The translations under genes and the position numbers were made by a program. From contig NC_086108.1 in the NCBI RefSeq assembly GCF_963921235.1, forward strand, positions 61,072,001 through 61,136,000: a stretch of 64,000 bases of DNA, read 5' to 3'. Position 1 is the first letter of the stretch. The number at the start of each line of letters is the position of its first letter. The notes below the pieces were generated by a model. The model was not told the origin of the DNA and did no database searches. It saw only the letters and a program-made list of their open reading frames with translations. This document shows, one piece after another, positions 4,140 through 45,600 of the stretch. The DNA comes from Mobula hypostoma (Eukaryota).

Positions 4140-6800
4140 TATGAATGAGTGTGTGCCTTTGAGAACATATCCAAACCAAATGCCATGGATGAACCAAGAG
4201 ATTCATAGTTTACTGAGTGCTAGACCTGTGGCATTCAAGACCAGTAACCCAGAACTATACAAGAAGCTCCTGTTACAACGTATGCAAGGATATTTTAAGA
4301 GTAAAAGAAACAATTCAGATTGAAGTTAGAAATGTAACCAGATGTACGTCAGCTCTGGCAGGGTATACAGGCGATTACTTCCTACATGGCAAAACCTATC
4401 ATCATGAATGGTTGTGATGTTTCACGCCAAGATGAGCTCAACACTTTTTATGCAGACTTTGAAAGAGAGAATAAAGCTACACCTGTGAAAATCCTTGCAG
4501 TATCTGATGATCCTGTGATCTATGTCTCGGAGGCCAATTTCAGAACACCTTTTGAGAGGGTGAACCTATACTAGGCATGAGGCCCTGATGATGAACTTGG
4601 TAGAGCACTGAAACCTTGTGCCAGCCATCTGGTGGGAGTGTTTAAGGACAATATCAATCAACACCTGCTTCAAAAGGGTGAAAATCAATCCAATGCCCAA
4701 GAGAGCAGGGAGGCTGTACAAGGACATAAACTGTAAGGAGAATGAACAAAGAAGCAGTGGATGAAATACAGTATCAGGAAGTATATGGTTGTGCACTTTG
4801 GTGGAAGGAGTAAAAGTGGAAACTATTTTCTAAACAGGAAGAAAATTCAAAACTCCGAAGTGCAAAGGGACTTGGGAGTCCTTGTGCTGGATTGCCTAAA
4901 ATTTAATGGTGAGGAAGGCAAATGCAATGTTATTATTCATTTTCAGAGGATTAGAATATAAAAACAAAGACGTAATGCTGAAGCATTATAAGGCACTCCT
5001 GAGGCCTCACTTGCAGTATCATGAGCAGTTTTGGGCCCCTTATCAAAGAAAGGACGTGCTGACATTGGAGATGGTTTGATGGCGGTTCATGAAATGATTC
5101 TGGGAAGGAAAGGTTTATCATATGTGAAGCATTTGATGGCTCTGGGCCTGTACTCACTGGAATTTAGAAGAGTGGTGGGAGGGAGGGGATTTCATTGAAA
5201 TGCAATGAATGTTGAAAGGCCTGGATAGAGTAGATGTGGAGAGGATGTTTCCTATAGTGGGGGAGTTTAGTATCAGAAGGAGAGCTTCAAAATAGAGGGA
5301 CGTCCATTTCGAATGGAGATGAGGAATTCATTGCCACAGGTGACTGTGGAGGCAGATTACTGAGTGTATTTAAGGCAGAGGTTGATAGATTCTTAATAAA
5401 TCAGGGTGTGAAAGGTTACAGGGAGAAGACAGGAGAACAGGGTTGAGAGAGAAATGAATCAGCCATGACCAAATGGTGGACAGACTCAAAGGGCTGAATG
5501 GCATAATTCTGCTCATACGTCTTATTATCTAATGGTCTAAGAGCAAGGTGATCTGCCTCAACGACTATCGTCCAGTTGCACTCACACCTACTGTGATGAA
5601 GTGCATTGAGGGGTTGGTCATGGCCAGAATCAACTCCTACCTAAGCAAGGACCTGGGCCCATTGCAATTTGCCTATTGCTATAATAGGTCTACAGCAGAT
5701 GTTATCTCACTAGCACTCTACTCAGCCAAAACCTGGGCCTCTGTACCTCCCTCTGCAATTGGATCCTTGACTTCTAATTGGGAGACCGCCATCAGTATGG
5801 ATCAGAAATAACTTCTCCTCTTTGATGACATCCAACACTGGTGCACTTCAAGGATGCATGCTTAGTCCCCTGCTCTACTCTTTCTACATCCCTGACTGTA
5901 TGGCTGGACCCAGCTCAAATACCATCTGTAAATTTGCCAATGACACAACTATTGTTGGCAGAATTTATGATGATGATGAAGAGGTGTACAGGAGTGAGAA
6001 AGATCAGCTGGCTGAGTGGTGTTTCAATAACAACCTCGTACTTAATGTTAGTAAGACCAAGGAATTGATTGTGGATTTCAAGAAGGGGAAGTCGAGGGAA
6101 CACGCACCATCCGTCATTGAGGGATCAGCAGTGGAAACGGTGAGAAGTTTCAAGTTCCTGGGTGGCAACATTTCTGAAGAACTATCCTGAGCATAAAATA
6201 TTAATGTAATTACAAAGAAGGCACAACAGCAGCTATATCTAAAGGAGTGAGGAGCCTCTTGCAAATTTCTAAAGCTGTACCATGGAGAGCATTCTAACTG
6301 CTTGCATCACTGTCTGGTATGGAAAGGCCACTGCACAGGATTGAGAAAAGTTGCAGAAAATGATAAACTTAGCCGGCTCCATTATGGGCACTAGCCTCTC
6401 CAGCACTGAGAACATCTTCAACACGTGATGCCTCAAAAAGGGAGAAGCCATCATTACCGACTTCCATCATGTAAGACATGCCTTCTTTTCATTACTGATG
6501 TCAATGAGAAGGCACAGACCCTGAAAACACACACTCAACATTTCAGGAACAGCTTCTTCCCCACCGCCATCAGACTTCTGAATGGACAATGAACCGATGT
6601 ACATGACCTCAATATTACTTTCTTTAATTCTGCTGTCTTTTTTCACTACAATACTTATTTAATTTAATGTTTTAAGATACAGTATATTTCTTATTTTAAT
6701 TTATATATTTTTATTGTTATGTATTGCATTGTACTGCTGCCGCAAAACAACAAATTTCATGGTATACGTCAGTAATATTAAACTGGATTCTGATTCTGAG
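4140..6800 (+). mobile_element. Decayed Rex1-like LINE interrupted by a CR1 fragment (~4700-5540)
   Basis: [37 protein letters not shown] and LNVSKTKELIVDF RT motifs. The reading resumes after the CR1 piece. gattctgattct tail near 6790. Confidence 0.8.
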
Positions 6801-7744
6801 GTAGCTAACAAAGTGAACGATCACTTCCTCGACAAAGCTCTGTACAAAAAAACTGTTTGGCTTGTGGCTAGACTCCCATATTGTGACATGTATAAAGCTG
6901 GAATTACCACAAGAATGAGGGGCTTTTTTAGTCAAAATAGAGGCATATGCTGTAGCTTCTGTGGAAATAAGTATTGGTTTGGGTGTGTTATGGGAACTTC
7001 TGTTTTTCATGGTGTAGTACCTTTAGTTGTCATTCCATTATTTTGAAACACTGGAAGATGGATATTTGAATTTTGGGATTTAGGAATACTGCATTGGAGT
7101 CTTAAGAATAGTGAGGGGGGCTTTTTGATCTACAGTCACAGCAAACTGCGTCCAAATTTCTGAGTGTGTTTCAAAATATTTCAAAAGATCGCAGGGTCCA
7201 AGAGCACAGTGATGTTGCTGGGATCCTCACCTTAACAAGAATTGTGAGAAAACGAGGCAGGATTCTGAAACACAATAAAGGGCAGGATCTCTGGGAATAG
7301 AAATTCTGTGATCCAACCTTAAAATGACTGGTGCGTGGACAATAGCATCTACAAAAATCGGAAACAGTTGAGTTAAGTCAAACAGCAAGGAATAGGACTC
7401 CGTATCTTTAAAAAGAAAAAATGTGTTTTATAAAGTCACCTTCAAATCTTGAGATTTTACAAAGCATTGAATTCAGACATAAATAATAAGTAATAAGCTT
7501 TTGAAGTCAGCAATGATGGGGCATTAATTTAAAACTGTTAACTCAAAGTGAGGAAAGAGGAGAGGAACAATTTCTTAATAGAGTGAATTAATGGACCAAG
7601 GATATATTTTGTTGAGGGGGTGGGGTGGAGTGTTCATTCAGAGTCTAGCAGCAGTAGTCAGGTCTCTGGTACTGTGACTGGCTCTGAGGTTCAGAGGGAC
7701 AATCCAAAAGTGTTGGGGGGGTGTGGTGGCAGGCAGGAGATTTT

Positions 7745-9140
7745 ATTGCCACAGAGGAGACACTAGGATGGTCTCCCATTTTTCAGCCCAATTTTCTAGC
7801 TGGTCCAGATCCTGCTGCAATCTCTGATCACCTTCCTTGTTGTCTACTACACTCACAGTCTTGGAATCATCTGCAAGTTTGTTGATCAAGTTAACCACAT
7901 TATCATCCAGATCGTTCATAGAGGTGACGAACAACAATGGACCCAACACCGAGTCCTGCGGCACTCTACTAGTCACAGGCTTTCAGTCAGAGAGACAACC
8001 ACCTACTACCACTCTCTGGCTTCTCCCACAATGCTAATGTCTAATTCAATATACTACCTCATCTTGAATGCCAAGCAACTGAACCCTTTTGACCAACCTC
8101 CCATGTGGGACCTTGTCAAATGCCTCGCTAAAGTCCATGTGGAGAACATCCATGGCCTTACCTTCATCAACACTCCTTGTAACTCCCTCGAAAAACTCTA
8201 TAAAATTGGTTAGACATGACCTACAAAGCTGTGATGACTATCCTTAATCGGTTTATGTTTGTCATATATCTGGTCCTTTAGGATGCCTTCCAAAAACTTT
8301 CCCACTACTGATGTTAGGCTCACTGGCCTATAATTTCCTCATTTGTTTTTAGAGCCCTTCTTAAATTGCAGACGACATCCTCCAATCCTCTGGTACCTCA
8401 TCTGGTACTAAGGATATTTTAAGTATCTCTGCTTGGGCCCCTGCAATTTCTGCACTTGCCTCCGCAGGGTCCGAGGGAATATCTTGTCAGGCCCTGGGGA
8501 TCTGTCCACCCTGATTTGCCTGAAGACAGCAAATGCCTCCTCCTCTGCAATCTGTATAGGGTCTGTGACATCGCTGCTGCTTTGCCTCACTTCTTTAAAC
8601 TCTGTCATCTCCTGAGTAAACACAAATGTAAAAATGCAAATCAGGTTTAAATCACAGTGTCTCCCCCCACCTCCTGTGCAGCTCTAGTAAGCCTTCCCAC
8701 TAGGTTATTAGTCCCTCTGTAGTTTAGGTGCAAACTGTCTCTTCTGGACTGGACCCACTTGTCTGGAAGAGAGCCCAATGATCCAAAAATCTAAAACCTA
8801 CACCACTACTTCAGTCATATGTTAAACTATATGATTTTCCTATTTCTAGCCTCACTAGCATGTGGCATGAGTAGCAATCCTGAGGCCACAATCCTGGAGG
8901 TCCTACTCCTTAAATTAGTACCTCTCTTTGAAGAACCTCATTACTCTACATTCCAATGGATCATGACCTCTGGCTGCTCACCCTCCTATTTAAGAATGCT
9001 GAGGACTCGATCTGAGATGTCCCTGATCCCTGGCACCCGGGAGGTAACATATCAACCAGGGATCTTATTCTCCTCCACAGAACCTGCTTTCTGCTCCCTT
9101 CACTAATGAATCCCCTATCACCACAGCTCGCCTCTTCTTT
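7745..9140 (-). mobile_element. CR1 LINE remnant (ORF1 esterase plus ORF2 RT pieces, internally deleted)
   Basis: Minus strand: KRRAVVIGDSLVKG (SGNH/GDSL-type ORF1), VDRSPGPDKIFPRTL, SRVPQDSVLGPLLF, LADDSK. Confidence 0.8.
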
Positions 9141-11519: not shown

Positions 11520-11742
11520 GTCATGCCCATTTATGAGTTGGTGGCCAGAAGTAATCTTCAGTCAGTTAACAGTAAGCAACAGCATTTAAGGAGAGCACTA
11601 GAAGAGTACTTTACTGAATTTCACCCCTGCAGATGCCATCCATGTTATCATAATGGAAATCCATTTCTTTTAAACAATAAGTGCATCTGTGTATGTGAAC
11701 CTGGATTTGAAGGAACAGCATGTCAAGAAACAAATCGAAGGG
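11520..11742 (+). CDS. C8A: Complement C8 alpha exon (MACPF end plus EGF-like domain)
   Basis: tctttag|GTC ATG...AGG G|gtaaga, 223 bp. VMPIYELV...LRRALEEYFTEFHPCRCHPCYHNGNPFLLNNKCICVCEPGFEGTACQE. Confidence 0.95.
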
Positions 11743-12104
11743 GTAAGAAACTGTTCATGCTGTTATCAGGTTTCTTGTAACAGTTACCAATTTAAAAAAA
11801 AAATCTGCCGTACTTCTATTGAATACATAAATGCTGCCACCAAACCACAAATTCCAAAACATATGTCAGTGATAATAAATTTGGTTTGGATTCTGTTTCT
11901 GGAATTGCCAAAAATTTAATCTTTTCTTGATATGCATTGTACTGCTTACTTAATTTTTGCTTTAAACACTTTGAGGGCTAGAGATTGTGGTTTGTTGTTA
12001 AAAGCACACTATATGATCATTGTGTGTTGCACCATTGAATGTATGGGTTGGAGCTTGCTGCTGCTATCTTCAATGGCACTCAAAGCCAAAGACATGAATA
12101 GTAT

Positions 12105-13552
12105 CAGACATCCCACCCTGCAAAATCTCATTTCAGGGAGGTAGCACCCCCATCCCCCGCAACCCCTGATCCCCCCCTCACCCGTCAACCTCCAAGGGTT
12201 TATGTAATACTTTGTTTAGTGATTTTCTCTAATCTCTAAACCAAGTTGAGTATATGCAGAAAATGCAACATTAAAATATGTACTTGTGTTATATTATAAT
12301 GTTTTTTCTATTACAACTTTAAGCAAGTCTGCAGGGAGTTTCGGCTCATCACATAGGACATCAATAGCGTAGCTCCCCAGCAGCCAGCCAGCTAGTTTAA
12401 ATAACGTTAGCTATGCTAATGAACGAATGACACCTGTTAAACTCACCTCAAACCCCCATGGGCAATAGAAAAGTCACTGTTGCAAACAGTGCAGCGAGCA
12501 ACACTGTCATTATTTTTGAGGTCGACTGTAAAGCCCGCCCACAGAAAAAACTGATAGGTCTACTTAGCAGGGGTCCCCAACCTTTTTTGCACCGCAGACT
12601 GGTTTAATATTGACAATATTCTTGCGGACCGGCTGACGGGAGGGGGGCGGGGCGGGGCGGGGGGTGGGGGTGTTAATCGCGACCAGAATATAGGTGATAA
12701 GTCAACTGTAAGTCACTTATAAGTGGCTAATACACTCAAAATTTTGTTTCTAAAAGGGTTTATCTAACGAAATTAATAGTAAACACACAGCGCATATTTC
12801 CCTCGCATGAATATAATAATGAGTCAATTATAAGTCAATAGCATCATAACATTTTAAGTAACATTTGGATATTAAACACACAGCACGTATTTTCCTCGTA
12901 TGAACATATAAAATCATTGCAACACACCAATATCGCTGAATCAGTGGGAGCCCTGGGCTTGTTTTCCTGCAACAAGACGGTCCCATCGAGGGGTGATGGG
13001 AGACAGCGATACTCGAAGGGGGGTCCTTAAGTCCAGTCTATTCCGCAATTTAGTTTTCATTGCAGAAAAGCCCGGTCCACAGAGATATGTTGGAAATGGA
13101 AGCAACGTTTTCAGTGCTTCCGTGGCTATCTCAGGATATTCAGCCTTGACTTAGATGCAGAAGGCCGGCAGAGATGTTATGTCAAACATACTTTTCAGCC
13201 CGCCGTGATTTGCAAACTCGAGGAGTTGATCCTTTTCCCGCGCTGACATGGATGACGTGTGCGTGATGACCTCATGTGCGTTCAAATTCAACAGTGGGTG
13301 TGAGAGGGAATGAGGAAAGGTGCGGATGACTCATATCGTTTCATATCGCCAAATCATATTGTTTCCTTGCATCCCGGTGGATGGGGACCACTCTTAGCAC
13401 GAAGAGAGACCAATCAAGATGCTCGCTCTCCTTCTCCCTCTCTTTCTCAAAAAAATCTATTTCCGGGATATTGTATATAATTTCCAGGCATCAGGGAGCC
13501 ACTATCAATATGCGGGAGACTCCCTGAACTTCCGGGAGAGGTGGGATGTCTG
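12105..13552. mobile_element. Non-autonomous DNA transposon (hAT-like) with 13-bp TIR CAGACATCCCACC and 6-bp TSD TAGTAT
   Basis: tagtat|CAGACATCCCACC...GGTGGGATGTCTG|tagtat, read directly. Confidence 0.85.
12568..13392 (-). mobile_element. Buster/Charlie-family hAT deletion derivative nested in the previous element
   Basis: Ends CAGGGGTCCCCAAC...TGGGGACCACT with partial TSD (ctacttag / cttag). Minus-strand remnant EYPEIATEALKTLLPFPTYLC...KTKLRNRLD...PRWDRLVAGKQAQGSH* at about 12940-13235 is the hAT dimerisation C-terminus. Confidence 0.85.
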
Positions 13553-14220
13553 TAGTATTGTTCACCAGAGAAACAACTTACATTCTGAAATATCTTGAAG
13601 TGAGCAGCTTCAAATCGTATTTGTAAAAAAAAGTTTTAAAAATTCTGATTTTACTTGCTTTTGAAGTTTTTATTTTAGCAAATCTGGGCCTGGAACTGGA
13701 AATTGTAGTAACACAGCTTGATGCTTTCAGTGTAACTGTATTAGTGGCTGTCTGGTATTGAGCATAGTGGGGAAGTAAATTGACTAGAATGACAAATTGT
13801 ACTTTTATGGTTTATATTTGTCCAGCTGCCTCTGAACTCAGTAGGCTGCCAATATTAGGCACACCTGAATGCACCAGTTAAAAAGACCATCCAAAGTGGC
13901 CTTTTAAAATGTTAAATATAAAATTTTAAGTGTCAAGTTGTTGTCAATGAAGTTATTGGGTAATGATTTTGTTCTACAGTTAGTTACAAATTATTCTGCT
14001 GCTTTCTCAAGTTTTAGTTCTCGAAATCATTTTAAATAATAACATTTTAGGTGTCATTCTATGACAAATCAAATTCGTGTTTGTAGAGTACAGAACATAA
14101 TTATTCTGCTGTTATTTTGAAAATGAGCTTACAGTCACTGCTCTTTTGGTAACAGTTGAATATAATGTCAGCCCAGGTTAGTGGAAGAATATCTTAGTGT
14201 GATGTCCTTTATTTTCACAG

Positions 14221-14369
14221 GGCCCACAGATGGGGGTTGGAACTGTTGGTCTCAATGGTCTGCATGCAGAAGCGGCTTGAGGAAACGGACACGGAGCTGC
14301 AACCATCCACCCCCAAAAGATGGTGGTGCCACGTGTCTTGGGAAGGACACACAGGCGCAACGCTGTTAA
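14221..14369 (+). CDS. C8A: Complement C8 alpha terminal coding exon (C-terminal TSP1 domain)
   Basis: ttttcacag|GG CCC ACA GAT. GPTDGGWNCWSQWSACRSGLRKRTRSCNHPPPKDGGATCLGKDTQAQRC-stop, with WxxWxxW and a terminal Cys as in C8A. Confidence 0.95.
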
Positions 14370-22156: not shown

Positions 22157-22684
22157 CTGGGAAAGGTTTCACTGCTAACGTAATGGTCTTTCTGTAGAAG
22201 CAGTGTTTGGGTTATGGTTAGAGATAATGGCTGCTTTGGAATGTAAGCTGGGTCCTTTTTCAGCAGCAGATGAAGAAGGAAGATGCTGGAGAGAACCGAT
22301 CGCAGGATTTGACCTGGTAGGAGACCTTGATTCGATGGAGCTACGGTCCGCAGTCGACTGAGGATTGGTGAAAATGCCTTTCGGAAGAGTTGAACTCCAA
22401 CTTGTGCACGTTTGACTGTTTAATTATAATGGGCCCCTTTTGTTGTATGTTTCTTTTTTTTCTTTACTAACCCTTTAGCTAAATTAAGATTCATAAATAC
22501 AATCGTATGCAGTGTGCTGTCTGTTCTTTCTTGGCACTGAATTTGTAAGAGGGTAGCAAATTACATATTATCCACACAAAATGGGGATTGGGGTGGGACA
22601 GCCATCTCAATCTCATGGGTTTGGCTGGGCCAGATTGTGTATTCCCCACATTTATGCAGCTAAGGAAGCCAGCAGGGTTTCATA
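22157..22684 (+). mobile_element. Probable solo LTR inserted in the SINE
   Basis: About 530 bp, non-coding, begins TGGGAAAG and ends GGTTTCATA (degenerate TG..GAAA/TTTC..CA ends). Splits the SINE at tttaacac|tagcc. Confidence 0.45.
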
Positions 22685-24269
22685 TAGTCCGTGAGCCAGG
22701 ACCCCAAATTTGAGCCACCGGTTCCATCGGGGGGGAATAATTCTCATAGTGATTTTTGGCAAGATATACACCCCTAGATCTAGAAAATATGTGACAGCAT
22801 TGCAGCGGTGGTAGCTTTCTGTGTTCCGTGTGGGATGATCAAATCATTCTTAGACCATGTGAACGACATGGCCAGTGACTCGAACCAACAGAAGTTGATC
22901 AATCTGCTGCAAAGTCCACTCTTCGCTGAGCTGTTAACCCTGTGGAAGACTTTCTGGAACACCTCCATCACAACAATGGAGAGCTATCCGCATTCTGGAT
23001 ATCATACATTGACAGGGTAGAGAACGTAGTACTTGGACTTCTGTGCGCCTCTCGTGAGGGGGACTGGGAGTTGAACCTCCATGCTATAAGAACCATCATC
23101 CCATGGTGCTTTGCCTATGATAAGATGAATTATGCCAGGTACCTGTCGCCTTATTTTGCTCAGATGATGAACATCCCAGAGAAGAATTCTTCTGTGTATG
23201 AGGCCTTCAAGACCGGCCAATTCTCAGTGCAGCTGTCAAGTAACAACCCCTTTGGGCAGATCCCTGTGGACCAGGCTATTGAAGCCACAGTGAACAAAGA
23301 CACACACAGACTCCTGGAGGCACATCATGGTTCAGCCTGAATGCTGGAGCTATCAAGCGTTACTACATAACAGCTGTGCAGCGCAGTGCATTCCTGGGAC
23401 AGTTAAGGGAGATGGTGCAAGGCAACAAATCAGAGCTTTGTCATGTGGAGCTACAGCAACCAAGAATCCAGAAAGATGAGGAAGCATTTTCAGCAGTGGT
23501 TAGCTGCATACATGAATGGGTCAACCCATTTGCAGAGAAGCAGGACCTCATTAGCATCTCTACGACAAAGTCAGCCCCCAAGGACATTGCCTCCGACCTC
23601 ATGAAGGCATATGAGATTGGTGAGTAATGCTATGCAACGTTCAAGGATGAGAGACTAGAGGAAGACCCACCAGCAAAGAAATTCCATGACACAATGAAAA
23701 CCAACAAGCTGAAAACATTCAGTGATATGTGTAAGAGGAGAGAAGTGAAATCAAATGGGAGGGCGATCATCTTGAAAGCAGACAGGTCTTTGTTTGGACG
23801 CATCATAGTGATGGCACAAGGGCGCAGTCTACGTATGGAGGATATCCTTTCTCATCCCCTTGGACCATTGCCCTGAGCCCTGTCCACACCAGAAGGATTG
23901 CTGAGAAAGACAAATAAAGCTACTTTAGCCACAACCTTGCAGAAAAATGTAGCAGTAGAAGAACAACTCCCAGGAAACTCTGCTACAGTGGTTGATGGAA
24001 TGAACTTGGTCCAAAGAGTAAAAGGTGATCAAGTTACTTTCAGAGATGTTGCCACAACAATGCTGGGTATGGCTCTGAGGGAAGGCAGTCAGAGTAGCAG
24101 AATAGATGTTGTGTTTGACACATACAGGGAAAACTCTATCAAGAATAGTGAAAGATTTCTACGGGGTGAAGAAACTGGTCATGAGTTGCAAGGTATTACA
24201 GGCACACAGATGGTGAGGCAGTGGAGGAGCTTCCTGACCAAAGTCAGTAACAAAAATAGTCTCAGTAGA

Positions 24270-24868
24270 ATAGATTAGACTAGATTATGAGGACATGCAG
24301 TCCTCTTTTATTGTCATTTAGTAATGCATGCATTAAGAAATGATATAATATTCCTCCGGTGTAATATCACAGAAACAAAGGACAGACCAAGACTGAAAAA
24401 CTGACAAAAACCACATACTTATAACATACAGTTACAACAGTGCAAACAATACCGTAACTTTATGAACAGGCCATGAGCACTGTAAAATAGTTCAGTCTCT
24501 CGAAAGTCCCACATCTCACGCTAATGGGAGAAGGAAGAAAACTCTCCCTACCATACCTGACCACAGTTCGACTCTGAGTCGTCCGAAAACTTCGAGCTCC
24601 GATCAGCTCTCCGACACCGAGCACCATCTCTGCCGAACGTTTCGACCGCAGCCTCGGTCGCCAGCAGCAGGCAAAGCCGAGGATTTTGGGGCCTTTCCTC
24701 CGGAGATTCTCAATTGCGCAGTAGCAGCGGCAGCGAACTGGGCGTTTCAGAGGTTACTCCAGATGTTCCTCCGTGCTCTCACGGCAGTCTCCATCAAATC
24801 AGAATTGTGCACAGCCCCTATTTAACAAATACAATATCATTTCACCGGAGAGGCTGCGCGTGCTGCAT
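24270..24868 (-). mobile_element. Short non-autonomous retroposon inserted in the Academ ORF
   Basis: Splits KVSNKNSL / IVHEWRK. Minus strand has a GC/CpG-rich 5' part, AATAAA and a (tctaa)n-like tail. Confidence 0.65.
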
Positions 24869-25178
24869 AGTCCATGAATGGAGGAAGGCAGAGTACAGAA
24901 CAAAGCTACAGGAGAAGATTCTGTATACAACTGTGAATGACAAATGTTACAGAATCACATCTCAAGACAGTGAAGAGGTGTCAGCTCTTCAGCGTCAACA
25001 AGAAGAAGCAGATGGCTGCCCACTTCTCCATGCTGCCCATGCCACAAGAGATACCAATCTGTAGTGATCTGCTCAGAAGACACAGATGTCTTTATCATGT
25101 CTTTAGCATTTTGTGACAAGATTGAGGCCCCATTGTTCCAGAAGTGTGGCACTAGAACCCGTACAAAGCTTGTAGGCA

Positions 25179-26863
25179 TGCCAGGGTCAGGGTCCGGGAT
25201 GTCTCTGCCCGGGTGCACGACATCCTGGTACGAGAGGGAAAGCAACCAGAAGTCGTGATACATGTTGGGACCAACGACATAGGCAGGAAGAGGGATGAGG
25301 TCCTGAAGTGTGAGTTTCAGGAATTAGGCAGAAGGCTGAAGAACAGGACCTCAAGGGTGACGTTCTCAGGATTGCTGCCAGTGCTACGTGATAGAGATGG
25401 TAAGAATTGGAGGAGATGGCAGTTGAATGCGTGGCTGAGGAGTTGGTGCAGGGAACAGGGTATTAGATTTTTAGATCATTGGGATCTCTTCTGGGGAAGG
25501 TGGGATCTGTACAGATTGGATGGGTTGCACCTGAACTCGAGGGAGAGCAATATCCTTGCAGGTAGGTTTGCTAGCATGGTTCGGGAGGGTTTAAACTAAT
25601 TTGCGAGGGGGATGGGACCCAGAGCGATAGAGCAGTGAAAGAAGTGCATGGAGTAAAGCCAGATCTAACATACAGAGAGGCTTTGAGGAAGGAGAAGCAG
25701 AATAATCGATGTAAAGACAGTAAGGTAGAAGGGCTGAAATGTGTGTACCTCAATGCAAGAAGTATCAGGAACAAAGGTGATGAACTGAGAGCTTGGATAC
25801 ATACATGGAGTTATGATGTAGTGGCCATAACAGAGACTTGGCTGGCACCAGGGCAGGAATGGATTCTCAATATTCCTGGATTTCAGTGCTTTAAAAGGGA
25901 TAGAGAGGGCGGAAAAAGGGGAGGAGGAGTGACATTACTGGTCAGGGATACTATTACAGCTACAGAAAGGGTGGGTAATGTAGCAGGATCCTCTTTTGAG
26001 TCAATATGGGTGGAAGTTAGGAACAGGAAGGGAGCAGTTACTCTACTGGGGGTATTCTATAGGCCCCTTGGTAGCAGCAGAGATACAGAGGAGCAGATTG
26101 GGAGGCAGATTTTGGAAAGGTGCAAAAATAACAGGGTTGTTATCATGGGTGACTTTAACTTCCCTAATATTGATTGGCACCTGATTAGTTCCAAGGGTTT
26201 AGATGGGGCAGAATTTGTTAAGTTTGTCCAGGATGGATTCCTGTCACAGTATGTGGATAGGCCGACCAGGGGGAACGCCATACTAGATCTAGTACTAGGT
26301 AATGAACCAGGTCAGGTCACAGATCTCTCAGTGGGTGAGCATCTGGGGGACAGTGACCACCGCTCCCTGGCCTTTATAATTATCATGTAAAAGGATAGAA
26401 TCAAAGAGGACAGGAAAATTTTTAATTGGGGAAAGGCAAATTATGAGGCTATAAGGCTAGAACTTGCAGGTGTGAATTGGGATGATGTTTTTGCAGGGAA
26501 ATGTACTATGGACATGTGGTTGATTTTTAGAGATCTCTTGCGGGATGTAAGGGATAAATTTGTCCCGGTGAGGAAGATAAAGAATGGTAGGGTGAAGGAA
26601 CCATGGGTGACAAGTGAGGTGGAAAATCTAGTCAGGAGGAAGAAGGCAGCATACATGAGGTTTAGGAAAAGGATCAGATGGGTCTATTGAGGAATATAGG
26701 GGCAAAAAAGGAGCTTAAGAAGGGGCTGAGAAGATCAAGAAGGGGGCATGAGAAGGCCTTGGCGAGTAGGGTAAAGGAAAACCCCAAGGCATTCTTCAAT
26801 TATGTGAAGAGAAAAAGGATGGCAGGAGTGAAGGTAGGACCGATTAGAGATAAAGGTGGGAAA
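25179..26863 (+). mobile_element. Internal CR1 fragment (ORF1 esterase plus ORF2 APE endonuclease) within the Academ element
   Basis: PEVVIHVGTNDIG...DGLHLN (SGNH esterase); YLNARSIRNK, VVAITETWL, IMGDFNFP, GDSDH (APE). Confidence 0.9.
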
Positions 26864-27974
26864 CTGTCCAAAAAAATGTTCACTCTCAAGATGTATGTGT
26901 GTTGTAAATGGCCTCAGGTGTACTGACATGTGTAGACTGGCAGACTGTGAGAACCAGGCATCCACCTCAGAGAGTGTGGAAAGTTCAGATGAAGATGTGG
27001 AAGACATGGAAGACTTGGAAAATTATTATGATTATTAATATGTTATGAAAGTACAGAAATTAGTCTTTGATTAAATATATTCATTTTACAACCAAATGGG
27101 GCCTAAGTTATGGCTGTGCAGAACCCCACATTTGAATTATTGTACTGTAATTCTATATGCTATGACAAAAGCTTAAGATTGTTTTGATCTGATACAACAA
27201 CATGGAAAATATCATGACATTGATAAAATTCCAGAAATCTCTCCAAATGAGGTTTTTTACCTTTTGGGGGGGCGGGGTAACATTTTCTGCTGTATTGATG
27301 TTAATATGGAATATATACAAAAAGGGATTACTTATTTGAAGTAATAAAGCTACCACTGGTGCAATGCTATCACATATTTTCTAAAGTCTAGGGATGTATA
27401 CCTTGCCAAAAATCACTATGAGCATTATTCTCCTCAGATGGTACCGACCAACCCTACTGGCTCACAGACTAATAGCACTAGCCTAATCACGGAACAATTT
27501 ACAATGACTAATTAACCTACTAACCTGTACATCTTTGGACTGTGGGAGGAAACCAGAGCATCTGGAGGAAACCCATGCGCACACGGGAAGAATGTACAAA
27601 TGTTCCTACAGAGGATGCCAGAATTGAACACGGAACTCTGACGCCCCAAGCTTTGACAGCATCACGTTCAATTCTGGTTCCATCTGTTCTTCCCGTTAAT
27701 GTATGGGTTTCCTCTGGGTGCTCCTGTTTCCTCCCACAGTCCAAAGGCATATTGTTTAGTAGGTTAATTGGGCTTTGTAAATTGTCCTTTGATTGCAGTA
27801 AGGTTAAATACGTGTGTTGTTGGGAGGGGCAGCTTGTTGGTCTGGAAAGGCCGCTTTTGTGTTATATCGCTAAATAAAATAAAATAACTAAACCAATATA
27901 CATGTAATTGTTTGGCGAATCTTCCAGAAATTGTAGAATAGCTAATTTTAGAGGTTTCCCAGTTTTTCTGCATT

Positions 27975-37118: not shown

Positions 37119-40100
37119 TGAATTGGTTGGTTTTAACTTTTCTGTGCCCTATCTGGGCAGAAAAGTTTATTTTTGATTTCTTAATATGGCTGCTAAACTT
37201 TCTTTTTAACTGCGTCATTTCTTTCTTTTCCCAGGGGATTCTGGGTGGTTACTTCCCTTTTGTCATCTTACGTATTTCCTGTGTGGCCTTAAATTTTGTA
37301 GTTTTTTTAAATTTTATTCTGTTTTGCTTTTTATAATCACTTTATGTTAATAATCCTATTTTTTCTTGTTGCTGTGTCTATTCATGAGTTTGAGGTTTAT
37401 TGTGGTTTTTTTTTAATATATATTTTCCGGCTTTTGTTCTGTTCTGTGTGTATTTTAATTGAGCTAACTTTTTTTTACTTATTTTTTTACTGTTTTACAA
37501 TTAGCTGATCCTTTTCATATTTATACCTTTTTTTTAGGGAGCGTATACCGGAAGTCATGGGGGTAGTTTTAGCGCTTGCTTCTTTCTGGCGGGTCTGCTT
37601 TAGATTTTGCCTTGGGGTCTTGGGGCTGGGGGTGGTGGGAGGGGCTTCACGTTTTAGTTTGTTTCTCTTTGGGCTATATACATTATTGAAGTACTGGTTG
37701 CGTCCTTTTCCCCGGTATCTTTTGTATGTTCTGTTTCCTCTCCGGGTTTGTGGGTCGCGCCTATCGTCAATCCTCCTTGTTGTGGGTTGACTTTAGGATT
37801 TATGGAGTCTATTATTAATTTTGTCTCCTGGAATACTAATGGTCTTAATCATCCTATTAAAAGGAAAAAAGTTTTTAAAGTGTTCCGGACACTTAAAGCA
37901 CAAATTTTATTTTTACAAGAGACCCATGTACGGAGGGGGGACAGACTACGTTTTTTCAAATTCTGGAAGGGACAACAATTTCATTCGAACTCCAATGCTA
38001 AGATTCGAGGCGTCTCTATTTTTATAGATTCCTCAGTTACTTTTACACAACAGGATATTATCTCTGATCCGAATGGTAGATTTTTATTGGTTAGTGGTTT
38101 ACTATTTAATAAAAAAGTAGTTTTGGTTAATGTTTATGCTCCTAATATGGATTGTCCGGAATTTTATAAATCATTGTTTGATCAGTTTCCGAATTTGAAC
38201 GAGTTTTCATTGATTTGGGGCGGAGATCTTAATACCTGTTTGTCTCCAGCTTTGGACCGTTCGGCTCCTTTACGGACTTTACCTAATAAATCTGCAAATT
38301 TGATTAATTTTTTCCTTTCTGATTCTGGGTCGACGGACATTTGGCGTTTTCTGCATCCTCAGGAAAAAGATTTTTCCTTCTTTTCACATGTTCATCATTC
38401 CTATTCAAGAATTGATTATTTTTTCATTGATTCTCGTCTCATTCCTTCAGTGATTAAATGTGATTATGATTCTATAACCATTTCGGATCATGCTCCACTT
38501 AAGCTTTCTATTAAAATTATGGCCAATATACCAAACAATAGACAATGGCGTTTTAATTCGCTGTTGCTTCAGGACTCGGACTTTGTTAATTTTATGAATG
38601 AACAGATTGAGCTTTTTTTTACAATTAACCATACAGAAGATATTTTGGTTAACACTCTTTGGGACACTTTTAAAGCCTATATTCGGGGTCAGATTATTTC
38701 GTATTCCGTTGCTTTGAGGAAGAAACAGAAGCAGGAGGAGATGGCAATTGTGGACAAGATTAAAGAAATTGATAAGAAATATGTTATGGCTCCCTCTGAG
38801 GAGTTATACAAACAAAGAACTGAACTTCAAATGGAACACAGTTTACTACTCTCGTCCTCGATTGTAAACCAATTAAAGAAAACAAGAAGTGAATTTTATG
38901 TTCACAGTGATAAAATTGGCAAGCTGCTGGCTAATCAATTGAAATCTAATTATGTTAAATCTCAAATTAATCAGATTTATAACCAAAATGATCGATTGAT
39001 ATTGGATCATGTGGGGATTAATCAAACCTTTTGTGATTTTTATTCTTCTTTATATCAATCAGAGTCTCCTCGAGATTCTAAATATATGAATGATTTTTTA
39101 GATAAGTTAGACTTCCCTCGGATTTCACAGGATATGTCTTCTTTATTAGATACTTCCATTACAATGGATGAGATTAAGAATATTATTTTTTCTATGAATC
39201 TGGGGAAAGCTCCTGGCCCTGATGGGTTTACCGTTGAATTTTATAAATGTTTTGCTTCTTTATTGATTCCTTGGCTCTATAAGGTTTTTGAGGCTTCTTT
39301 GAAACTTGGTAAACTTCCGGAATCTTTTAATAGAGCATCAATTTCTCTAATACTAAAGAAGGATAAAGACCCTGCTCAATGTGCATCTTATAGACCAATA
39401 TCTTTATTAAATGTTGATTCTAAAGTTTTTTCTAAGTTATTAGCAAATAGACTAGAAAAAGTACTTCCTTCTATTATTTCGGAAGACCAAACGGGTTTTA
39501 TTAAAGGTCGTTACTCTTTTTATAATATTCGTACATTGTTAAATATCGTTTATACTCCCTCACAAAATGTTCCTGAGTGTGTTATTTCTTTAGATGCCGA
39601 GAAAGCTTTTGATAGAGTAGAATGGCCTTATTTATTTAAGGTGCTTGAAATGTTTAATTTTAGCTTGAAATTTATATCCTGGATTAAACTGTTATATCAC
39701 TCCCCTGTAGCCTCGGTTCGTACTAACTCTTTAAACTCACCTTTTTTTCCTCTCTTTCGTGGTACTCGACAAGGCTGTCCTCTTAGTCCCCTATTATTTG
39801 ATATTGCATTAGAACCTCTTGCAATTGCTATTCGAGAATCTTCAAATATTACTGGGATAACTCGGGGATTAAAGTCCCATAAATTATCACTCTATGCTGA
39901 TGATTTACTTTTATATATTTCTAATCCTGAGAGATCCATTCCTGCTGTTTTAGAGTTATTAGCACAATTTGGTCTTTTCTCAGGTTATAAATTAAATCTT
40001 AGTAAGAGTGAACTTTTTCCGATTAATAAACATCTTCCCTTATATTATAAATTTCCATTTAAATTGATTAATAATTACTTTTCATATCTTGGGATTAAAA

Positions 40101-41939
40101 TTACTTGTAAACATAAAGATTTATTTAAGACTAACTTTTTACCATTAATAGACCATATTACTCAACTTTCATCTAAATGGTTTCCCTTATATTTAACTTT
40201 GATTGGTCGTATTAATGCAGTTAAGATGTTTTTTTTGCCAAAATTTTTATATGTGTTTCAGGCATTACCAATTTTCGTTCCTAAATCTTTTTTTGATAAA
40301 GTTGACTCTAAAATTTCTTCATTTATTTGGCAGAATAAGAATCCGAGACTGGGTAAAATACATTTACAGAAAGCTAAGAGAGATGGAGGTTTAGCATTAC
40401 CTAACTTTAGATTTTATTATTGGGCTATTAATATTCGACATATGAAATTTTGGTTACTTGACCGGGACATACTATCTATTCCTAAGTGGGTAGCATTGGA
40501 ATTACAATCTGTTCAGGGTTATACACTTGGTTCTATTTTAGGTTCCTCTCTTCCTTTTGATTCGAAACGTCTTAAGCAGGTCTCTAACCCGATAGTTAAA
40601 TATGCTTTGCGCATTTGGTTTCAATTCAGAAAATTTTTTGATCTTAATCAATTCGGGTTAGCGATTCCTATTTTAGGTAACATATTTTTTCCTCCCTCTT
40701 TTACGGATCGCGCTTTTCAAACTTGGAAGACTAAGGGTATTTTACGGTTTTTGGATTTATTTTTAGATGGTTCCCTTATGTCTTTTGAACAATTATCTAA
40801 TAAATATAACTTATCAAGAATACATTTTTTTAGATATTTACAAGTTAGAAATTTCCTAAGTACTATACTTTCTTCCTTTCCAATGCTTCCTCCTATATAT
40901 ATTTTAGATTCGATAATTAACCTTAATCCATGTCAGAAAGGTGCATCGGCTATGATTTATAATATTATTATGAAACTTAGGAAAGCTCCATTTGATAAGA
41001 TTAGGGTAGATTGGGAACAGGAATTGGGGCTTACCATTTCTGTGGATGATTGGGGGCAGATTTTACAATTAGTTAATACTTCCTCTATTTGTGCTAAACA
41101 TTCCCTAATTCAATTTAAAGTGGTTCATAGAGCACATATGTCCAAAGATAAGTTAGCGTGTTTTTACTCGCATATTAATCCTTTCTGTGATAGATGTTCG
41201 GGGCAGATAGCCTCTTTAACTCATATGTTTTGGTCTTGCCCTACTTTGGAAACTTTTTGGAGAGATATTTTCAATATTATTTCTAAGGTATTAAATATAG
41301 ATATCTCTCCTCACCCTATTACTGCTATCTTTGGACTACCTAAAATTTCTAGTAATCTTTCCCCTTCAGCCCGTAGAATGATTGCATTTCTTACTTTAAT
41401 GGCGAAAAGATGTATTTTACAACATTGGAAAGAGCTTAATGCTCCAACTACCTTTTTTTGGTTTTCTCAGACGATTTTATGTTTGAATTTGGAGAAAATT
41501 AGAAGTAACCTTTATGATTCTTCATTTAAATTTGAACAGATTTGGGGACCTTTTATTCGATATTTTCATTTAATGTAATATTTACCCTTCTTGTTTTTTT
41601 TTCACTGTTTTTAATGGAGGTCGGGATTGAGGACGTGATTTTAAGTTTAACTCTGTTTGGTTTCAAGTTAGCCCATTGCTTTGCCTTGCTTTTAGTTAGC
41701 TGCACGGTGGGTTTTTTTTTGGGTTTTTTTTTCTTTTTTTTCCATTGATATATATAAAATTTAGTATACTATTATGTTATCTTGGTTTCTTATGCTTAAA
41801 TTACATTGTTTGTAGTATTTTCTTTTTGGTATTGTTATCTTTTGGAATTTTATTATACTTTAACATTGTATTAATGTTTATATGGCTTACCTTTTTTGTA
41901 TACTTACTCAATAAAAAGATTTAAAAAGAAAGAAAGAAA
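37119..41939 (+). mobile_element. 5'-truncated L1 (LINE-1 clade) with intact ORF2, 3'UTR, AATAAA and (AAAG)n tail; 12-bp TSD GATCATGCAATC
   Basis: TSD at 37107-37118 and 41940-41951; AATAAA at 41910-41915; antisense inside a C8B intron. Confidence 0.95.
37802..41578 (+). CDS. L1 ORF2p (APE endonuclease, reverse transcriptase, C-terminal Cys/His motif), 1258 aa from the first ATG
   Basis: Uninterrupted ORF with SWNTNGLN, LQETH, NVYAPN, GGDLN, SRIDYF, SDHAP; KAPGPDG, SLDAEKAFD, GTRQGCPLSP, YADD; CDRC...LTHMFWSC. Confidence 0.95.
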   Translation: MESIINFVSWNTNGLNHPIKRKKVFKVFRTLKAQILFLQETHVRRGDRLRFFKFWKGQQFHSNSNAKIRGVSIFIDSSVTFTQQDIISDPNGRFLLVSGLLFNKKVVLVNVYAPNMDCPEFYKSLFDQFPNLNEFSLIWGGDLNTCLSPALDRSAPLRTLPNKSANLINFFLSDSGSTDIWRFLHPQEKDFSFFSHVHHSYSRIDYFFIDSRLIPSVIKCDYDSITISDHAPLKLSIKIMANIPNNRQWRFNSLLLQDSDFVNFMNEQIELFFTINHTEDILVNTLWDTFKAYIRGQIISYSVALRKKQKQEEMAIVDKIKEIDKKYVMAPSEELYKQRTELQMEHSLLLSSSIVNQLKKTRSEFYVHSDKIGKLLANQLKSNYVKSQINQIYNQNDRLILDHVGINQTFCDFYSSLYQSESPRDSKYMNDFLDKLDFPRISQDMSSLLDTSITMDEIKNIIFSMNLGKAPGPDGFTVEFYKCFASLLIPWLYKVFEASLKLGKLPESFNRASISLILKKDKDPAQCASYRPISLLNVDSKVFSKLLANRLEKVLPSIISEDQTGFIKGRYSFYNIRTLLNIVYTPSQNVPECVISLDAEKAFDRVEWPYLFKVLEMFNFSLKFISWIKLLYHSPVASVRTNSLNSPFFPLFRGTRQGCPLSPLLFDIALEPLAIAIRESSNITGITRGLKSHKLSLYADDLLLYISNPERSIPAVLELLAQFGLFSGYKLNLSKSELFPINKHLPLYYKFPFKLINNYFSYLGIKITCKHKDLFKTNFLPLIDHITQLSSKWFPLYLTLIGRINAVKMFFLPKFLYVFQALPIFVPKSFFDKVDSKISSFIWQNKNPRLGKIHLQKAKRDGGLALPNFRFYYWAINIRHMKFWLLDRDILSIPKWVALELQSVQGYTLGSILGSSLPFDSKRLKQVSNPIVKYALRIWFQFRKFFDLNQFGLAIPILGNIFFPPSFTDRAFQTWKTKGILRFLDLFLDGSLMSFEQLSNKYNLSRIHFFRYLQVRNFLSTILSSFPMLPPIYILDSIINLNPCQKGASAMIYNIIMKLRKAPFDKIRVDWEQELGLTISVDDWGQILQLVNTSSICAKHSLIQFKVVHRAHMSKDKLACFYSHINPFCDRCSGQIASLTHMFWSCPTLETFWRDIFNIISKVLNIDISPHPITAIFGLPKISSNLSPSARRMIAFLTLMAKRCILQHWKELNAPTTFFWFSQTILCLNLEKIRSNLYDSSFKFEQIWGPFIRYFHLM

Positions 41940-42689: not shown

Positions 42690-45600
42690 TTTAATAATGC
42701 TCAGGATACATTTCCCAGGAACAGATGCACTAGTGGAATCAGCACCAAAAAGGAGTAGTTACTGTGTTATTCATACAGAGAGCTACGTTAATGGCACTGC
42801 GCCTTCCAGAGAGCACATGAGAATCTTTTTTCTCTGTCTGTAGAGCTTTTGGGGAGGCGTTGAACTAATCTGGCAGGGGGTGGGAGAGTGATAGGGCTGA
42901 GGTTGGGGCAATTCATATACAAGTCAGTGTTTTGTATTGATGATAGGGCAAAATTGCAGTCAGTGGGATGAGCTGAAGTGTAACTTGGCAGCAAAATTGA
43001 AATGGGTGTTGAATACAGGACTGAAAGTGCTATATTTGAATGTACACCATATACAGAGTAAGGTAGATTATTTTGTAGCATAGTTAGAGACTGGCAGGTT
43101 TGACGTTGTGGGCATCACTGAGTTGCGGTTGAAAGAAGATCATAGTTGGGATATTGAGATCCAAGGATACAACTTGTATCAAAAGAACGGGCAGGTAGGC
43201 TGAGTGGGTCGGATGGATCTGTTAGTTAAAAGTGAAATTAAATCCTTAGGAAGAGGTGACATAGAATTAGAAGATGTAGAATCTTTGTGGGCAGTGTTAA
43301 GAAGCTGCAAGGGTAAAAAGACACTGATGGGAGTTATATACTGGCCCCCAAACAGTAGCCAGATGTGGGATATAAATTTCGACAGGAAATAGAAAAGGCA
43401 TATAATAAGGGCACTGCTACGATAGTCATGGGGGGTTTCCATATGCAGATACATTGGGAAAATCTTAGAGAATTTTAGAGCAGCCTTTGGTTGAACCCAC
43501 TAGGGGAAAGACAATTCTGGATTTAGTGTTGTGTAATGAACCAGATATGATTAGGGACCTTAAGGTAAAGGAGCCCTCAGGAGTAAGTGATTATATTATA
43601 ATAAAATTCACCCTGCAGTTTGAGAGGGAGAAGATAAGGTCAGATGTATCAGTATTACAGTGGAGTAAAGGGAATTACAGAGGCATGAGAGAGGAATTGG
43701 ACAAAGTTGATTGCAAGGGGACAAAAGCATGGATGACAGCAGGACAGCAATGGCTGGAGTTTCTGGGGTCAATTCAGAAGGTGCAGAATAGACATATCCC
43801 ACAGATGAAGAAGTCTTCTAAAGGGAGAATGAGGCAACCATGGCTGACAAGGAAAGTGAAAGGCAGCATTAAAGCAAAAGGGAGGGCACATAATGTAGCA
43901 AAAATGATTGGGAAATTAGAGGGTTGGGAAGCTTTTAAAAAACAATAGATGACAACTAAAAAAAACTATAACATGAGAAAAGATAAAGTATGAAGGTAAA
44001 CTAGCCCATGATATCAAAGAGAATAACAGAAGTTTTTTTCAGGTATATAAAGAATAAAAGAGAGGCAAAACTGAGTATTGGACTGCTGGAAAATGACTCG
44101 GGAGACGTAGTGACGGGGAACAAAGAAATGGTGGGCAAACTTATTAAGTATTTTGCTTCAGTCTTCATTGTGGAAGACACTAGCAATATGCCAGAAATTC
44201 AAGAATGTCAGGGAGAATAAGTGGGTGTAGTTGCTATTACTGAGGAGGAGGTGTTTGGGAAGTTGAAAGATCTGAAAGTAGATAAGTCACCTGACCAGAG
44301 GGATTACACTCCAGAGTTTTGAAAGAAGTAGCTGAAAAGATTGTTGGAGGCATTAGAAATGTTCTTTCAAGAATTACTGAATACAGGAATGGTTTTGGAG
44401 GACTGGACATGTCACGCCACTCTTAAGGGGGGTGGGTGGAGTCAGAAGAAAGGAAATTATAGGCCAGTTAGCCTGATTTCAGTGGTTGAGAAAATGATGG
44501 AGTCTATTATTCAGGAAGAGGCTTTGAGGTAGTTGTAGGCCAATGTTCTTGAGGGGAAATCTTGCCTGACAAATCTGCTGGAATTTTTTGAGGGAATAAC
44601 AGGCAAGGTAGACAAAGGAGAGTCAGAGGATGCTGTTTACTTGGATATTCAGATTGCCTTTGATAAGGTGCAGCACATGAGACTGTGTAATAAGATAAGA
44701 GCCCATGGTATTATAGGAAAGATGCTAGCAGGGATAGAAGCTTTGCTGACTGGCAAGAATAAGGGGGACCTATTTTGGTTGGCTGGCAGTGATTAATGGT
44801 GTTCTGCAAGGTTTGCAATTGGGACCCTTCTTGTTACATTATGCTGTATGCTGGTGATTAGGATGAAGGAATTGATGGCCTTGTGGCCAAGTTTGCGGAC
44901 GATACAAAGGTCAGTGGAGGGGCAGTTAGTGTTGAGGAAGCAGGGAGTCTGCTGAAGGACTTGGACAGATTTGGAAAATAGGCAAAGAAGTGGTAGATGG
45001 AATATAGTGCATGGTCATGCACTTTTGTAGAAGGAATCAAGCATAAACTATTTTCTAAAGAGGAAGAAAATTCAAAAATTAGAGCTGCAAAGGGACTTGA
45101 GAGTCGTAGTGCAGGATTCCCTTAGTGTTAACTTGCAGGTTGAGTCAGTGGTAAGGAAGGCAAAGCAATGTTAGCATTCATTTCAAGAGGACCAGAATAT
45201 ACAGTTGAAGTCAGAAGTTTACATACACCTTAGCCAAATACATTTAAACTCAGTTTTTCACAATTCCTGACATTTTATTCCTAGAAAACATTCCCTGTCT
45301 TAGGTCAGTTAGGATCACTACTTTATTTTAAGAATGTGAGATGTCAGAATAATAGTAGAGAGAATGATTTATTTCAGCTTTTATTTCTTTCATCACTTTC
45401 CCAGTGGGTCAGAAGTTCACATACACTTTGTTAGTATTTGGTAGCATTGCCTTTAAATTGTTTAACTTGGGTCAAGCGTTTTGGGTAGCCTTTCACAAGC
45501 TTCTCACAGTAAGTTTCTGGAACTTTGTTCTATTCCTGGTGGGAGGGTGGGGGGTGGGGTAACTGAGTCAGGTTTGTAGGTCTCCTTGCTCGCACATGCT

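Follow-up and report, generated by a model that had tools for sequence, protein, structure and literature searches.

An apparently dead, internally deleted transposon of probable AcademX type between C8A and C8B of a ray

The AcademX lineage of the Academ superfamily of DNA transposons was reportedly set out by Kapitonov and Jurka in 2010 and by Kojima in 2020, and a C-terminal cysteine cluster is typical of it. In outline, an AcademX element is bounded by terminal inverted repeats (TIRs), makes a 3-bp target-site duplication (TSD) and has a single open reading frame (ORF) that encodes a DDE core, a nuclease and a Cys finger; intact copies measure 5.5-6.5 kb. The subject of this report is an element at positions 22685-27471 of the window, that is, the whole 64,000-nucleotide stretch of contig NC_086108.1 that was analysed. 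It differs from this outline in that it has been deleted twice and is broken. That it belongs to the AcademX type, with a 3-bp TSD, and is a dead copy with internal deletions has, in our view, a probability of about 0.9.

Excerpts from the published accounts place Academ among the DDE superfamilies (PMC9587614, PMC5751038, bioRxiv 2021.09.26.461848), describe it as abundant in bivalves, with a mean length there of 5,565 bp (PMC10294476), and list a fossil Academ in amniotes (PMC9004415). As excerpted, PMC10045372 distinguishes AcademX, with a nuclease and TSDs of 3-4 bp, from AcademH, with a helicase and TSDs of 9-10 bp. No study of the biochemistry or structure of an AcademX enzyme was found in the literature searched, outside which lay most subscription papers, Repbase Reports and Kojima 2020; the ray families or the triad discussed below may already be listed by Kojima 2020, Kapitonov and Jurka 2010 or Yuan and Wessler 2011.

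The element, its ends and its relatives

The element is 4,787 bp long. Residues are numbered on P0002 (1,569 amino acids, aa), the closest relative, with 79% identity over the aligned pieces. With the read-through of 23283-24275 as query, 1,593 candidates were obtained, of which 61 are longer relatives; many of these 61 measure about 1,560 aa. The second point of reference is L001, an intact relative of 6,219 bp with one 1,571-aa ORF between its TIRs. The features are as follows.

22682-22684, plus strand: left TSD, ATA; the same triplet stands at 27472-27474
22685-22818, plus strand: left TIR, 134 bp, 79% alike to the left end of L001 over 133 bp
22835-24263, plus strand: Academ ORF remnant corresponding to aa 751-1226 of P0002; its pieces are 65-85% identical to that protein
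24264-24862, minus strand: nested 599-bp high-copy insertion with a 5-bp tandem tail, skipped by joints and of high depth
24867-25178, plus strand: Academ ORF remnant, aa 1230 to about 1334, with E1275, E1276, D1278, D1302 and D1304; frameshift near 25049
25179-26862, plus strand: nested internal fragment of a CR1-type long interspersed nuclear element (LINE); Pfam Lipase_GDSL_2, E 3e-13, and Exo_endo_phos, E 7e-18
26863-27038, plus strand: Academ C-terminus with CXC (Tesmin/LIN54-like) cysteine finger, acidic tail and stop; Pfam TCR, E 0.017
27346-27471, minus strand: right TIR, 126 bp, matching the left TIR
27472-27474, plus strand: right TSD, ATA, pairing with 22682-22684

The ATA flanks and the TIRs of about 130 bp named in an initial annotation of this DNA are thus both present. 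The termini read TAGTCCGTGAGCCAG and CTGGCTCACAGACTA. Within the 64 kb the 15-base terminus has only two matches, one on each strand, against a chance expectation of 0.00 (100 shuffles). The two TIRs agree at 14/15 outer and 89/100 inner bases, and the spacer between the outer and inner parts is unequal (19 vs 10 bases). The same unequal spacer after base 15 recurs across the family, with inner TIRs that are 63-79% alike, those of intact L001 included. Because these imperfections are family-wide, TIR mismatch cannot date the window copy, and dating by this route was rejected. A single sub-threshold Rfam match to a small nucleolar RNA in the right TIR was taken as chance.

A metagenome scan yielded 373 relatives among 423 stretches, 80 of which were retained. 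The terminus motif is present in 37 of these 80 loci. Both ends and enough flank are available for 15 loci, and 10 of them have an exact 3-bp duplication. Removal of L072, the flanks of which are the same as those of L054, leaves 9 of 14 distinct loci, compared with 1.2 under shuffled pairing (0 of 100,000 reach 9). L007 was excluded by the flank rule; it is without a matching duplication. Nothing longer than 3 bp was duplicated in the loci tested, up to 10 bp. Other copies therefore do share these ends and 3-bp TSDs, as the earlier assignment to AcademX had presupposed. One locus, L013, contains a perfect 1,377-bp inverted repeat (1-1377 and 6632-8008) that reaches both contig ends; the repeat probably arose in assembly, and the lack of a TSD at this locus therefore counts for little.

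The family is large, with 25,588 protein representatives at E<=0.001, and an excerpt of PMC4746887 already counts Academ copies in zebrafish, medaka and stickleback, which runs counter to the rarity claimed initially. Matches in the ESM Atlas are confined to unnamed eukaryotic clusters, and 33 pattern matches in viral contigs included 0 relatives. In GTDB, 4 of 41 candidate stretches are relatives (L081-L084), located in two bacterial metagenome-assembled genomes, one of them on a 1.26-Mb contig. L082 has a broken ORF and AT-rich flanks, with no bacterial ORFs in 11 kb, which suggests that the GTDB copies are mis-binned animal DNA, i.e. contamination.

Two predicted enzyme folds in the intact relatives

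The transposase core was modelled on L001 over aa ~400-990 (78 alignment rows, pLDDT 91.7). Of its five strands, the first bears D477 and the fourth ends in D644; a helical insertion of 200 residues comes next, and E900 then lies on a helix. Among 48,161 chains, the best structure match is the P transposase (Z 10.3, 336 residues aligned, root-mean-square deviation (rmsd) 4.8), with ISCth4 (IS256/MULE; Z 9.1), Hermes (hAT; Z 8.1) and RAG1 (Z 7.2) next, and integrases and Tn5 also represented. The P element, ISCth4, Hermes and RAG1 enzymes are only 8-10% identical in sequence to the core, and none of these matches covers the nuclease fused behind it. D477 (99/99 rows), D644 (114/114), D896 and E900 (both 116/116) are invariant, and H673 is invariant or nearly so. 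The fold and these acids point to a DDE domain in L001, with D477/D644/E900 as the predicted catalytic triad; the window copy retains its third residue only.

The Pfam domain of unknown function DUF6589 matches the Academ core in P0325, P0334, P0358, P0059 and P0004, in the first of these above the cut-off (35 vs 27 bits), and is thus likely to be a DDE transposase. DUF6589 is also carried by basidiomycete and mollusc look-alikes of the core; it appears to mark the AcademH lineage, which would then have a related transposase core. Upstream of the core, in a part absent from the window, aa 14-184 of P0002 contain conserved C14, H70 and C73 as well as C123, C126, H181 and C184, residues that probably form two zinc-binding sites in the DNA-binding N-terminal part of intact relatives.

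The second fold lies behind the core, at aa ~1085-1545 of L001 (81 rows, pLDDT 94.3). Its top 17 structure matches are all FEN1-like 5' nucleases, the next, unrelated row falling to Z 6.3. EXO1 leads (Z 13.8, 266 aligned, rmsd 4.0), ahead of XRN1 (12.8), T5 FEN (12.0), GEN1 (11.3), FEN1 (11.2) and XPG (10.9), and Foldseek agrees on the fold (best E 3.5e-5). The same relationship emerges from profile-profile comparison with 29 bacterial Pol I 5' nuclease domains, in which a 134-row alignment reaches 76% (E 2e-5, 139 columns) and a 40-row alignment 46%, compared with 3.9% for the DDE core and 0.1-0.4% for reversed and unrelated controls. Seven acids (D1137, D1178, E1276, D1278, D1302, D1304 and D1360) are kept in 132-134 of 134 rows.

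Sequence identity to EXO1, XRN1, GEN1, FEN1 and XPG is only 9-15%, and in none of these is the nuclease fused behind a transposase. For EXO1, excerpts of PMC10153752 and PMC12186255 name D78, D171, D173, K85, R92 and D225 as site residues. D78 and D225 align with the invariant D1178 and D1360, and the K/R pair, seven apart in both and invariant in Academ, is placed one residue later there than in EXO1. Because EXO1 and XRN1 outscore XPG, 'XPG-like' names the superfamily only; read in this way, the XPG/PIN-like nuclease of the initial annotation is supported by both the modelled fold and the profile. The last 40 residues form a CXC finger resembling LIN54 (profile match, E 0.005).

Taken as a whole, the family has shared TIRs, a 3-bp TSD, a DDE core, a fused nuclease and a C-terminal cysteine cluster, the combination on which the AcademX identification had been built. 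It differs from AcademH, with its helicase and 9-10 bp TSD, in both respects: no helicase match was found in 8 full-length proteins, L001 has a single ORF between its TIRs, and the longest exact duplication is 3 bp.

Several points weigh against the classification. The name AcademX is derived from architecture and TSD rather than from comparison with Academ sequences in Repbase or Dfam; an exact 3-bp TSD is missing at 5 of the 14 distinct loci, and a single assembly supplied 7 of the 9 loci that have one. Both fold models describe intact L001, not the window copy. The Z values of the core are middling, with no Foldseek match under E 0.001 (best, Hermes, E 0.025). For the nuclease, no member scanned matches Pfam XPG or PIN at the cut-off, and the sequence match to EXO1 is weak (E 0.14-0.19). 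Across the window pieces and relatives, Pfam gives only weak TCR/CXC matches, DUF6589 and scattered PIN-clan hints (NYN, YacP, Pox_G5 and 5_3_exonuc_N, E 0.006-0.035), and full-length profiles gave no match to PDB sequences.

In intact relatives of the L001/P0002 type, both enzymes and the finger reside on one protein of about 1,570 aa. Such a protein would bind the TIRs, with the CXC zinc finger likely contributing to DNA binding. At the TIRs, the RNase H-fold DDE core would nick the 3' ends and transfer them to the target with a 3-base stagger, as follows from the fold and the TSD. The FEN1/EXO1/XPG-fold 5' nuclease would then cut or trim the non-transferred 5' strand or flap. We offer this assignment of the nuclease to 5'-strand release tentatively, at just short of an even chance. 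Tn7 may be taken as an analogy of function, since there a DDE enzyme (TnsB) attends to the 3' ends and a second nuclease (TnsA) to the 5' ends. TnsA is a separate, restriction-enzyme-like protein, and no homology with the Academ nuclease is claimed.

Alternatively, the DDE core alone could excise the element via hairpins, as hAT and RAG do, with the FEN1/EXO1-like domain acting on the target or donor gap, either by trimming a wider staggered cut to a short TSD or by resecting for repair. This is a serious possibility, at somewhat less than an even chance and only a little behind 5'-strand release, with other roles sharing the small remainder. The core folds like the hAT, MULE, P and RAG enzymes, none of which is known to need a second nuclease for excision, and the best fold matches of the nuclease, EXO1 and XRN1, are 5'-3' exonucleases. 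The authors of PMC10045372, in the excerpt used, tie TSD length to the accessory enzyme (9-10 bp with the AcademH helicase, 3-4 bp with the AcademX nuclease). Trimming after strand transfer, however, predicts TSDs of variable length, and all 10 exact duplications among the relatives are 3 bp.

Decay of the window copy and its route of insertion

About 640 of the 1569 codons remain in the window copy (642 residues by count, some four of them overhanging into the LINE). From the DDE core, the remnant at 22835-24263 preserves the last part of the helical insertion together with D896 and E900; the linker follows, and then the first half of the nuclease, with D1137, D1178, K1186 and R1193. Stops interrupt this remnant at 23625 and 23874, and frameshifts occur near 22950, 23300 and 25049. 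Missing are aa 1-750 of P0002, in agreement with the N-terminal deletion recognised at the outset, and aa ~1335-1511, a second deletion, overlooked in the initial annotation, that removes the GCD/helix-hairpin half of the nuclease. Six of the seven nuclease acids are kept, while D477, D644, H673 and D1360 are lost; the copy can therefore build neither active site and is in all likelihood dead.

The two foreign insertions, neither of them noted in the initial annotation, account for 2,283 of the 4,787 bp. The 599-bp one, with its tandem tail at 24266-24287 on the minus strand, gave no match in a Pfam scan and probably represents the 3' terminal part of either a non-LTR retroelement or a short interspersed nuclear element (SINE). 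The LINE fragment comprises the end of an SGNH esterase ORF1 and the apurinic/apyrimidinic (AP) endonuclease of ORF2, a layout which we take to be a mark of CR1, and has neither reverse transcriptase (RT) nor 3' tail. It sits where about 0.55 kb of Academ DNA is gone (a 545-bp gap relative to L001), and reads continue past 26862 unlike the window sequence. The simplest order of events would be insertion of the LINE, followed by one deletion that took its 3' half and the adjoining Academ DNA.

The motifs first reported here (NYARY, DQAIEATVNK, DGM, VFDTY, EEAD, SEDTDV, the Cys finger and the acidic tail) all lie in the frames given for them. The long open stretches from which a recent copy had been argued do not bear that reading. 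The LINE endonuclease accounts for the longest open frame in the element (25575-26387, 271 aa); of the frames made up of Academ sequence alone, the two longest reach 136 and 133 aa. With 2 stops, 3 frameshifts, 2 insertions and 2 large deletions the copy has neither the intact ORF nor the two active sites of an autonomous transposon. It is decayed, yet not ancient, since the best public run contains 0.37 of its 31-mers, which works out at a divergence of about 3%, and since the protein tree gives it an end branch of 0.05.

Two runs, X1 and X2 (organisms A and B), cover the family well; read depth in them is not equal to copy number, and the joints considered are those listed, 601 further rows lying outside the listing. 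In both runs the bins that follow 22843-23023 are about ten times as deep as that bin itself, and joints tie the left TIR end (22817/22820) to the middle of the ORF (23054/23074). Deletion forms without the N-terminal half therefore exist in related genomes.

We consider it probable that the window copy moved in trans as such a deletion form and then decayed. The transposase of an intact family member would have pasted the already deleted copy between C8A and C8B, with a 3-bp duplication, and the pasted copy would afterwards have taken two retroelement insertions and a second deletion. Against this stands the absence of the copy's own left junction among the joints listed. That junction (22818 to about 22835) is unlike the commonest ones of X1 and X2 (23054/23074).

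This would fit a full-length autonomous insertion which lost its N-terminal 750 codons in place and never moved as a deletion derivative. The low depth of bin 22843-23023 has been counted in its favour, and the second deletion, made in place after the LINE had inserted, shows that such losses occur at this locus. The break nevertheless sits right at the TIR end, like those of the deletion forms in both runs, and some contigs in both do cover that bin; loss in place is unlikely. A composite element that brought both inserts along as its cargo, CR1 piece and 599-bp sequence alike, is very improbable: both are enclosed by intact TIRs, but joints in X1 and X2 skip the 599-bp insert in other copies (by 594-598 bp), LINE sequence continues in reads at 26862, and read depth over the two inserts far exceeds that over the Academ parts.

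Genomic setting and origin of the family in rays

Plus-strand exons at 11520-14366 have C8 alpha as their best match (E 2e-18), and those on the minus strand, running from 60061 down to 30108, match C8 beta (E 6e-27). The element is therefore intergenic, between the 3' ends of C8A (plus) and C8B (minus), which lie tail to tail, and its reported location is borne out. Two inverted SINE-like copies stand immediately to its right, at 27485-27794, the first covered in all four runs compared. A 1,306-aa stop-free LINE ORF2 (endonuclease, RT and zf-RVT) at 37658-41575, on the plus strand, is antisense to C8B within an intron (flanking exons 42266-42138 and 36781-36617) and looks like an intact L1-type element. 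A further C8B intron contains, at 45567-46616 on the plus strand, a Tc1/Sleeping Beauty-type transposase in two pieces (HTH_SB and DDE_3), and 54077-55223, on the minus strand, is a remnant of a long terminal repeat (LTR) retrotransposon with an integrase zinc-binding match. Of the 13 matches to the C8B exon, 7 are cartilaginous-fish models named DAB1, 1,155-1,292 aa long, which fuse DAB1 and C8B domains (P0437, P0438, P0440, P0441, P0443, P0445 and P0446); such models probably reflect neighbouring genes merged in annotation, or else a conserved read-through.

Over the aligned block, the closest named relatives of the element reach 84-87%. One comes from a devil ray, Mobula hypostoma (163/188), and the other two from bony fishes, Leuciscus (164/189) and a Synaphobranchus eel (199/238). 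A snow-crab-containing cluster (338/432), an anemone (301/432) and a sponge (203/297) are more distant; similar proteins are thus not confined to the marine invertebrates named initially as their main source, and the nearest named ones come from fishes. The M. hypostoma sequence (LOC134346378, P0180), annotated only as an uncharacterized protein of 249 aa, is a decayed piece with the same DQAIEATVNK variant, from another locus or species than the window copy. In a protein tree of 49 rows, several of the named ones filling less than half of the columns, the window copy is sister to P0180 (99/94). This ray pair falls inside a clade with the eel, the cyprinid and P0002 (100/95); in the wider tree, sponge, crab and cnidarian rows are intermingled.

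On balance, the family probably entered rays by horizontal transfer from other animals. Where the two ray copies agree, ray and eel Academ proteins are 88% identical (127/144 sites), more than C8B shows between ray and shark (70-75%) or ray and chimaera (57%). The C8B exon of the window agrees fully (100%) with a Mobula birostris model and at 94% with Hypanus, which marks the host as a devil ray. The tree path from ray to eel is 0.16 changes per site, and the anemone and coral sequences are farther from the fish clade than are a sponge sequence and the crab-containing cluster. Among the superfamilies named in the excerpt of PMC12400950, Academ has the highest rate per copy: a figure of 638.9 transfers per million copies puts it ahead of mariner and hAT, and a further Academ transfer would therefore be unsurprising.

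The alternative is vertical inheritance in jawed fishes, with strong constraint on the protein accounting for its likeness across animals; we regard this as rather doubtful. The protein does evolve slowly, with non-synonymous divergence of 0.12 vs synonymous divergence (dS) of 0.8-0.9 to the three nearest of 23 loci (L001-L003), the hosts of which are not on record, so that this dS is unusable for the transfer question. Ray, eel and cyprinid sequences group together with good support, and C8B, as an immune gene, is a fast comparator, compared here among cartilaginous fishes. Runs X21 and X22 contain almost none of the element at 85% likeness; as the LINE piece is absent there too, they are uninformative on patchy spread. 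The horizontal acquisition suggested initially is plausible and has partial support in the ray-eel identity and the tree. It is unlikely that both larger propositions hold together, namely that AcademX is a single-chain transposase with two active sites, a eukaryotic counterpart of TnsA/TnsB in one polypeptide, and that the ray family was acquired by horizontal transfer shared with eels and cyprinids.

The window copy itself, intergenic, dead and one of many, matters little. The family matters more, because the models give each of the two domains its candidate catalytic residues and L001 provides an intact element complete with both termini, so that the role of the second nuclease can be tested directly. 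If the single-chain reading is true, a core of P/MULE/hAT/RAG type would handle the 3' ends while an EXO1/XRN-like nuclease frees the other strand. Transfer between rays and teleosts, if true, would be one more case in a superfamily that is reported to transfer often.

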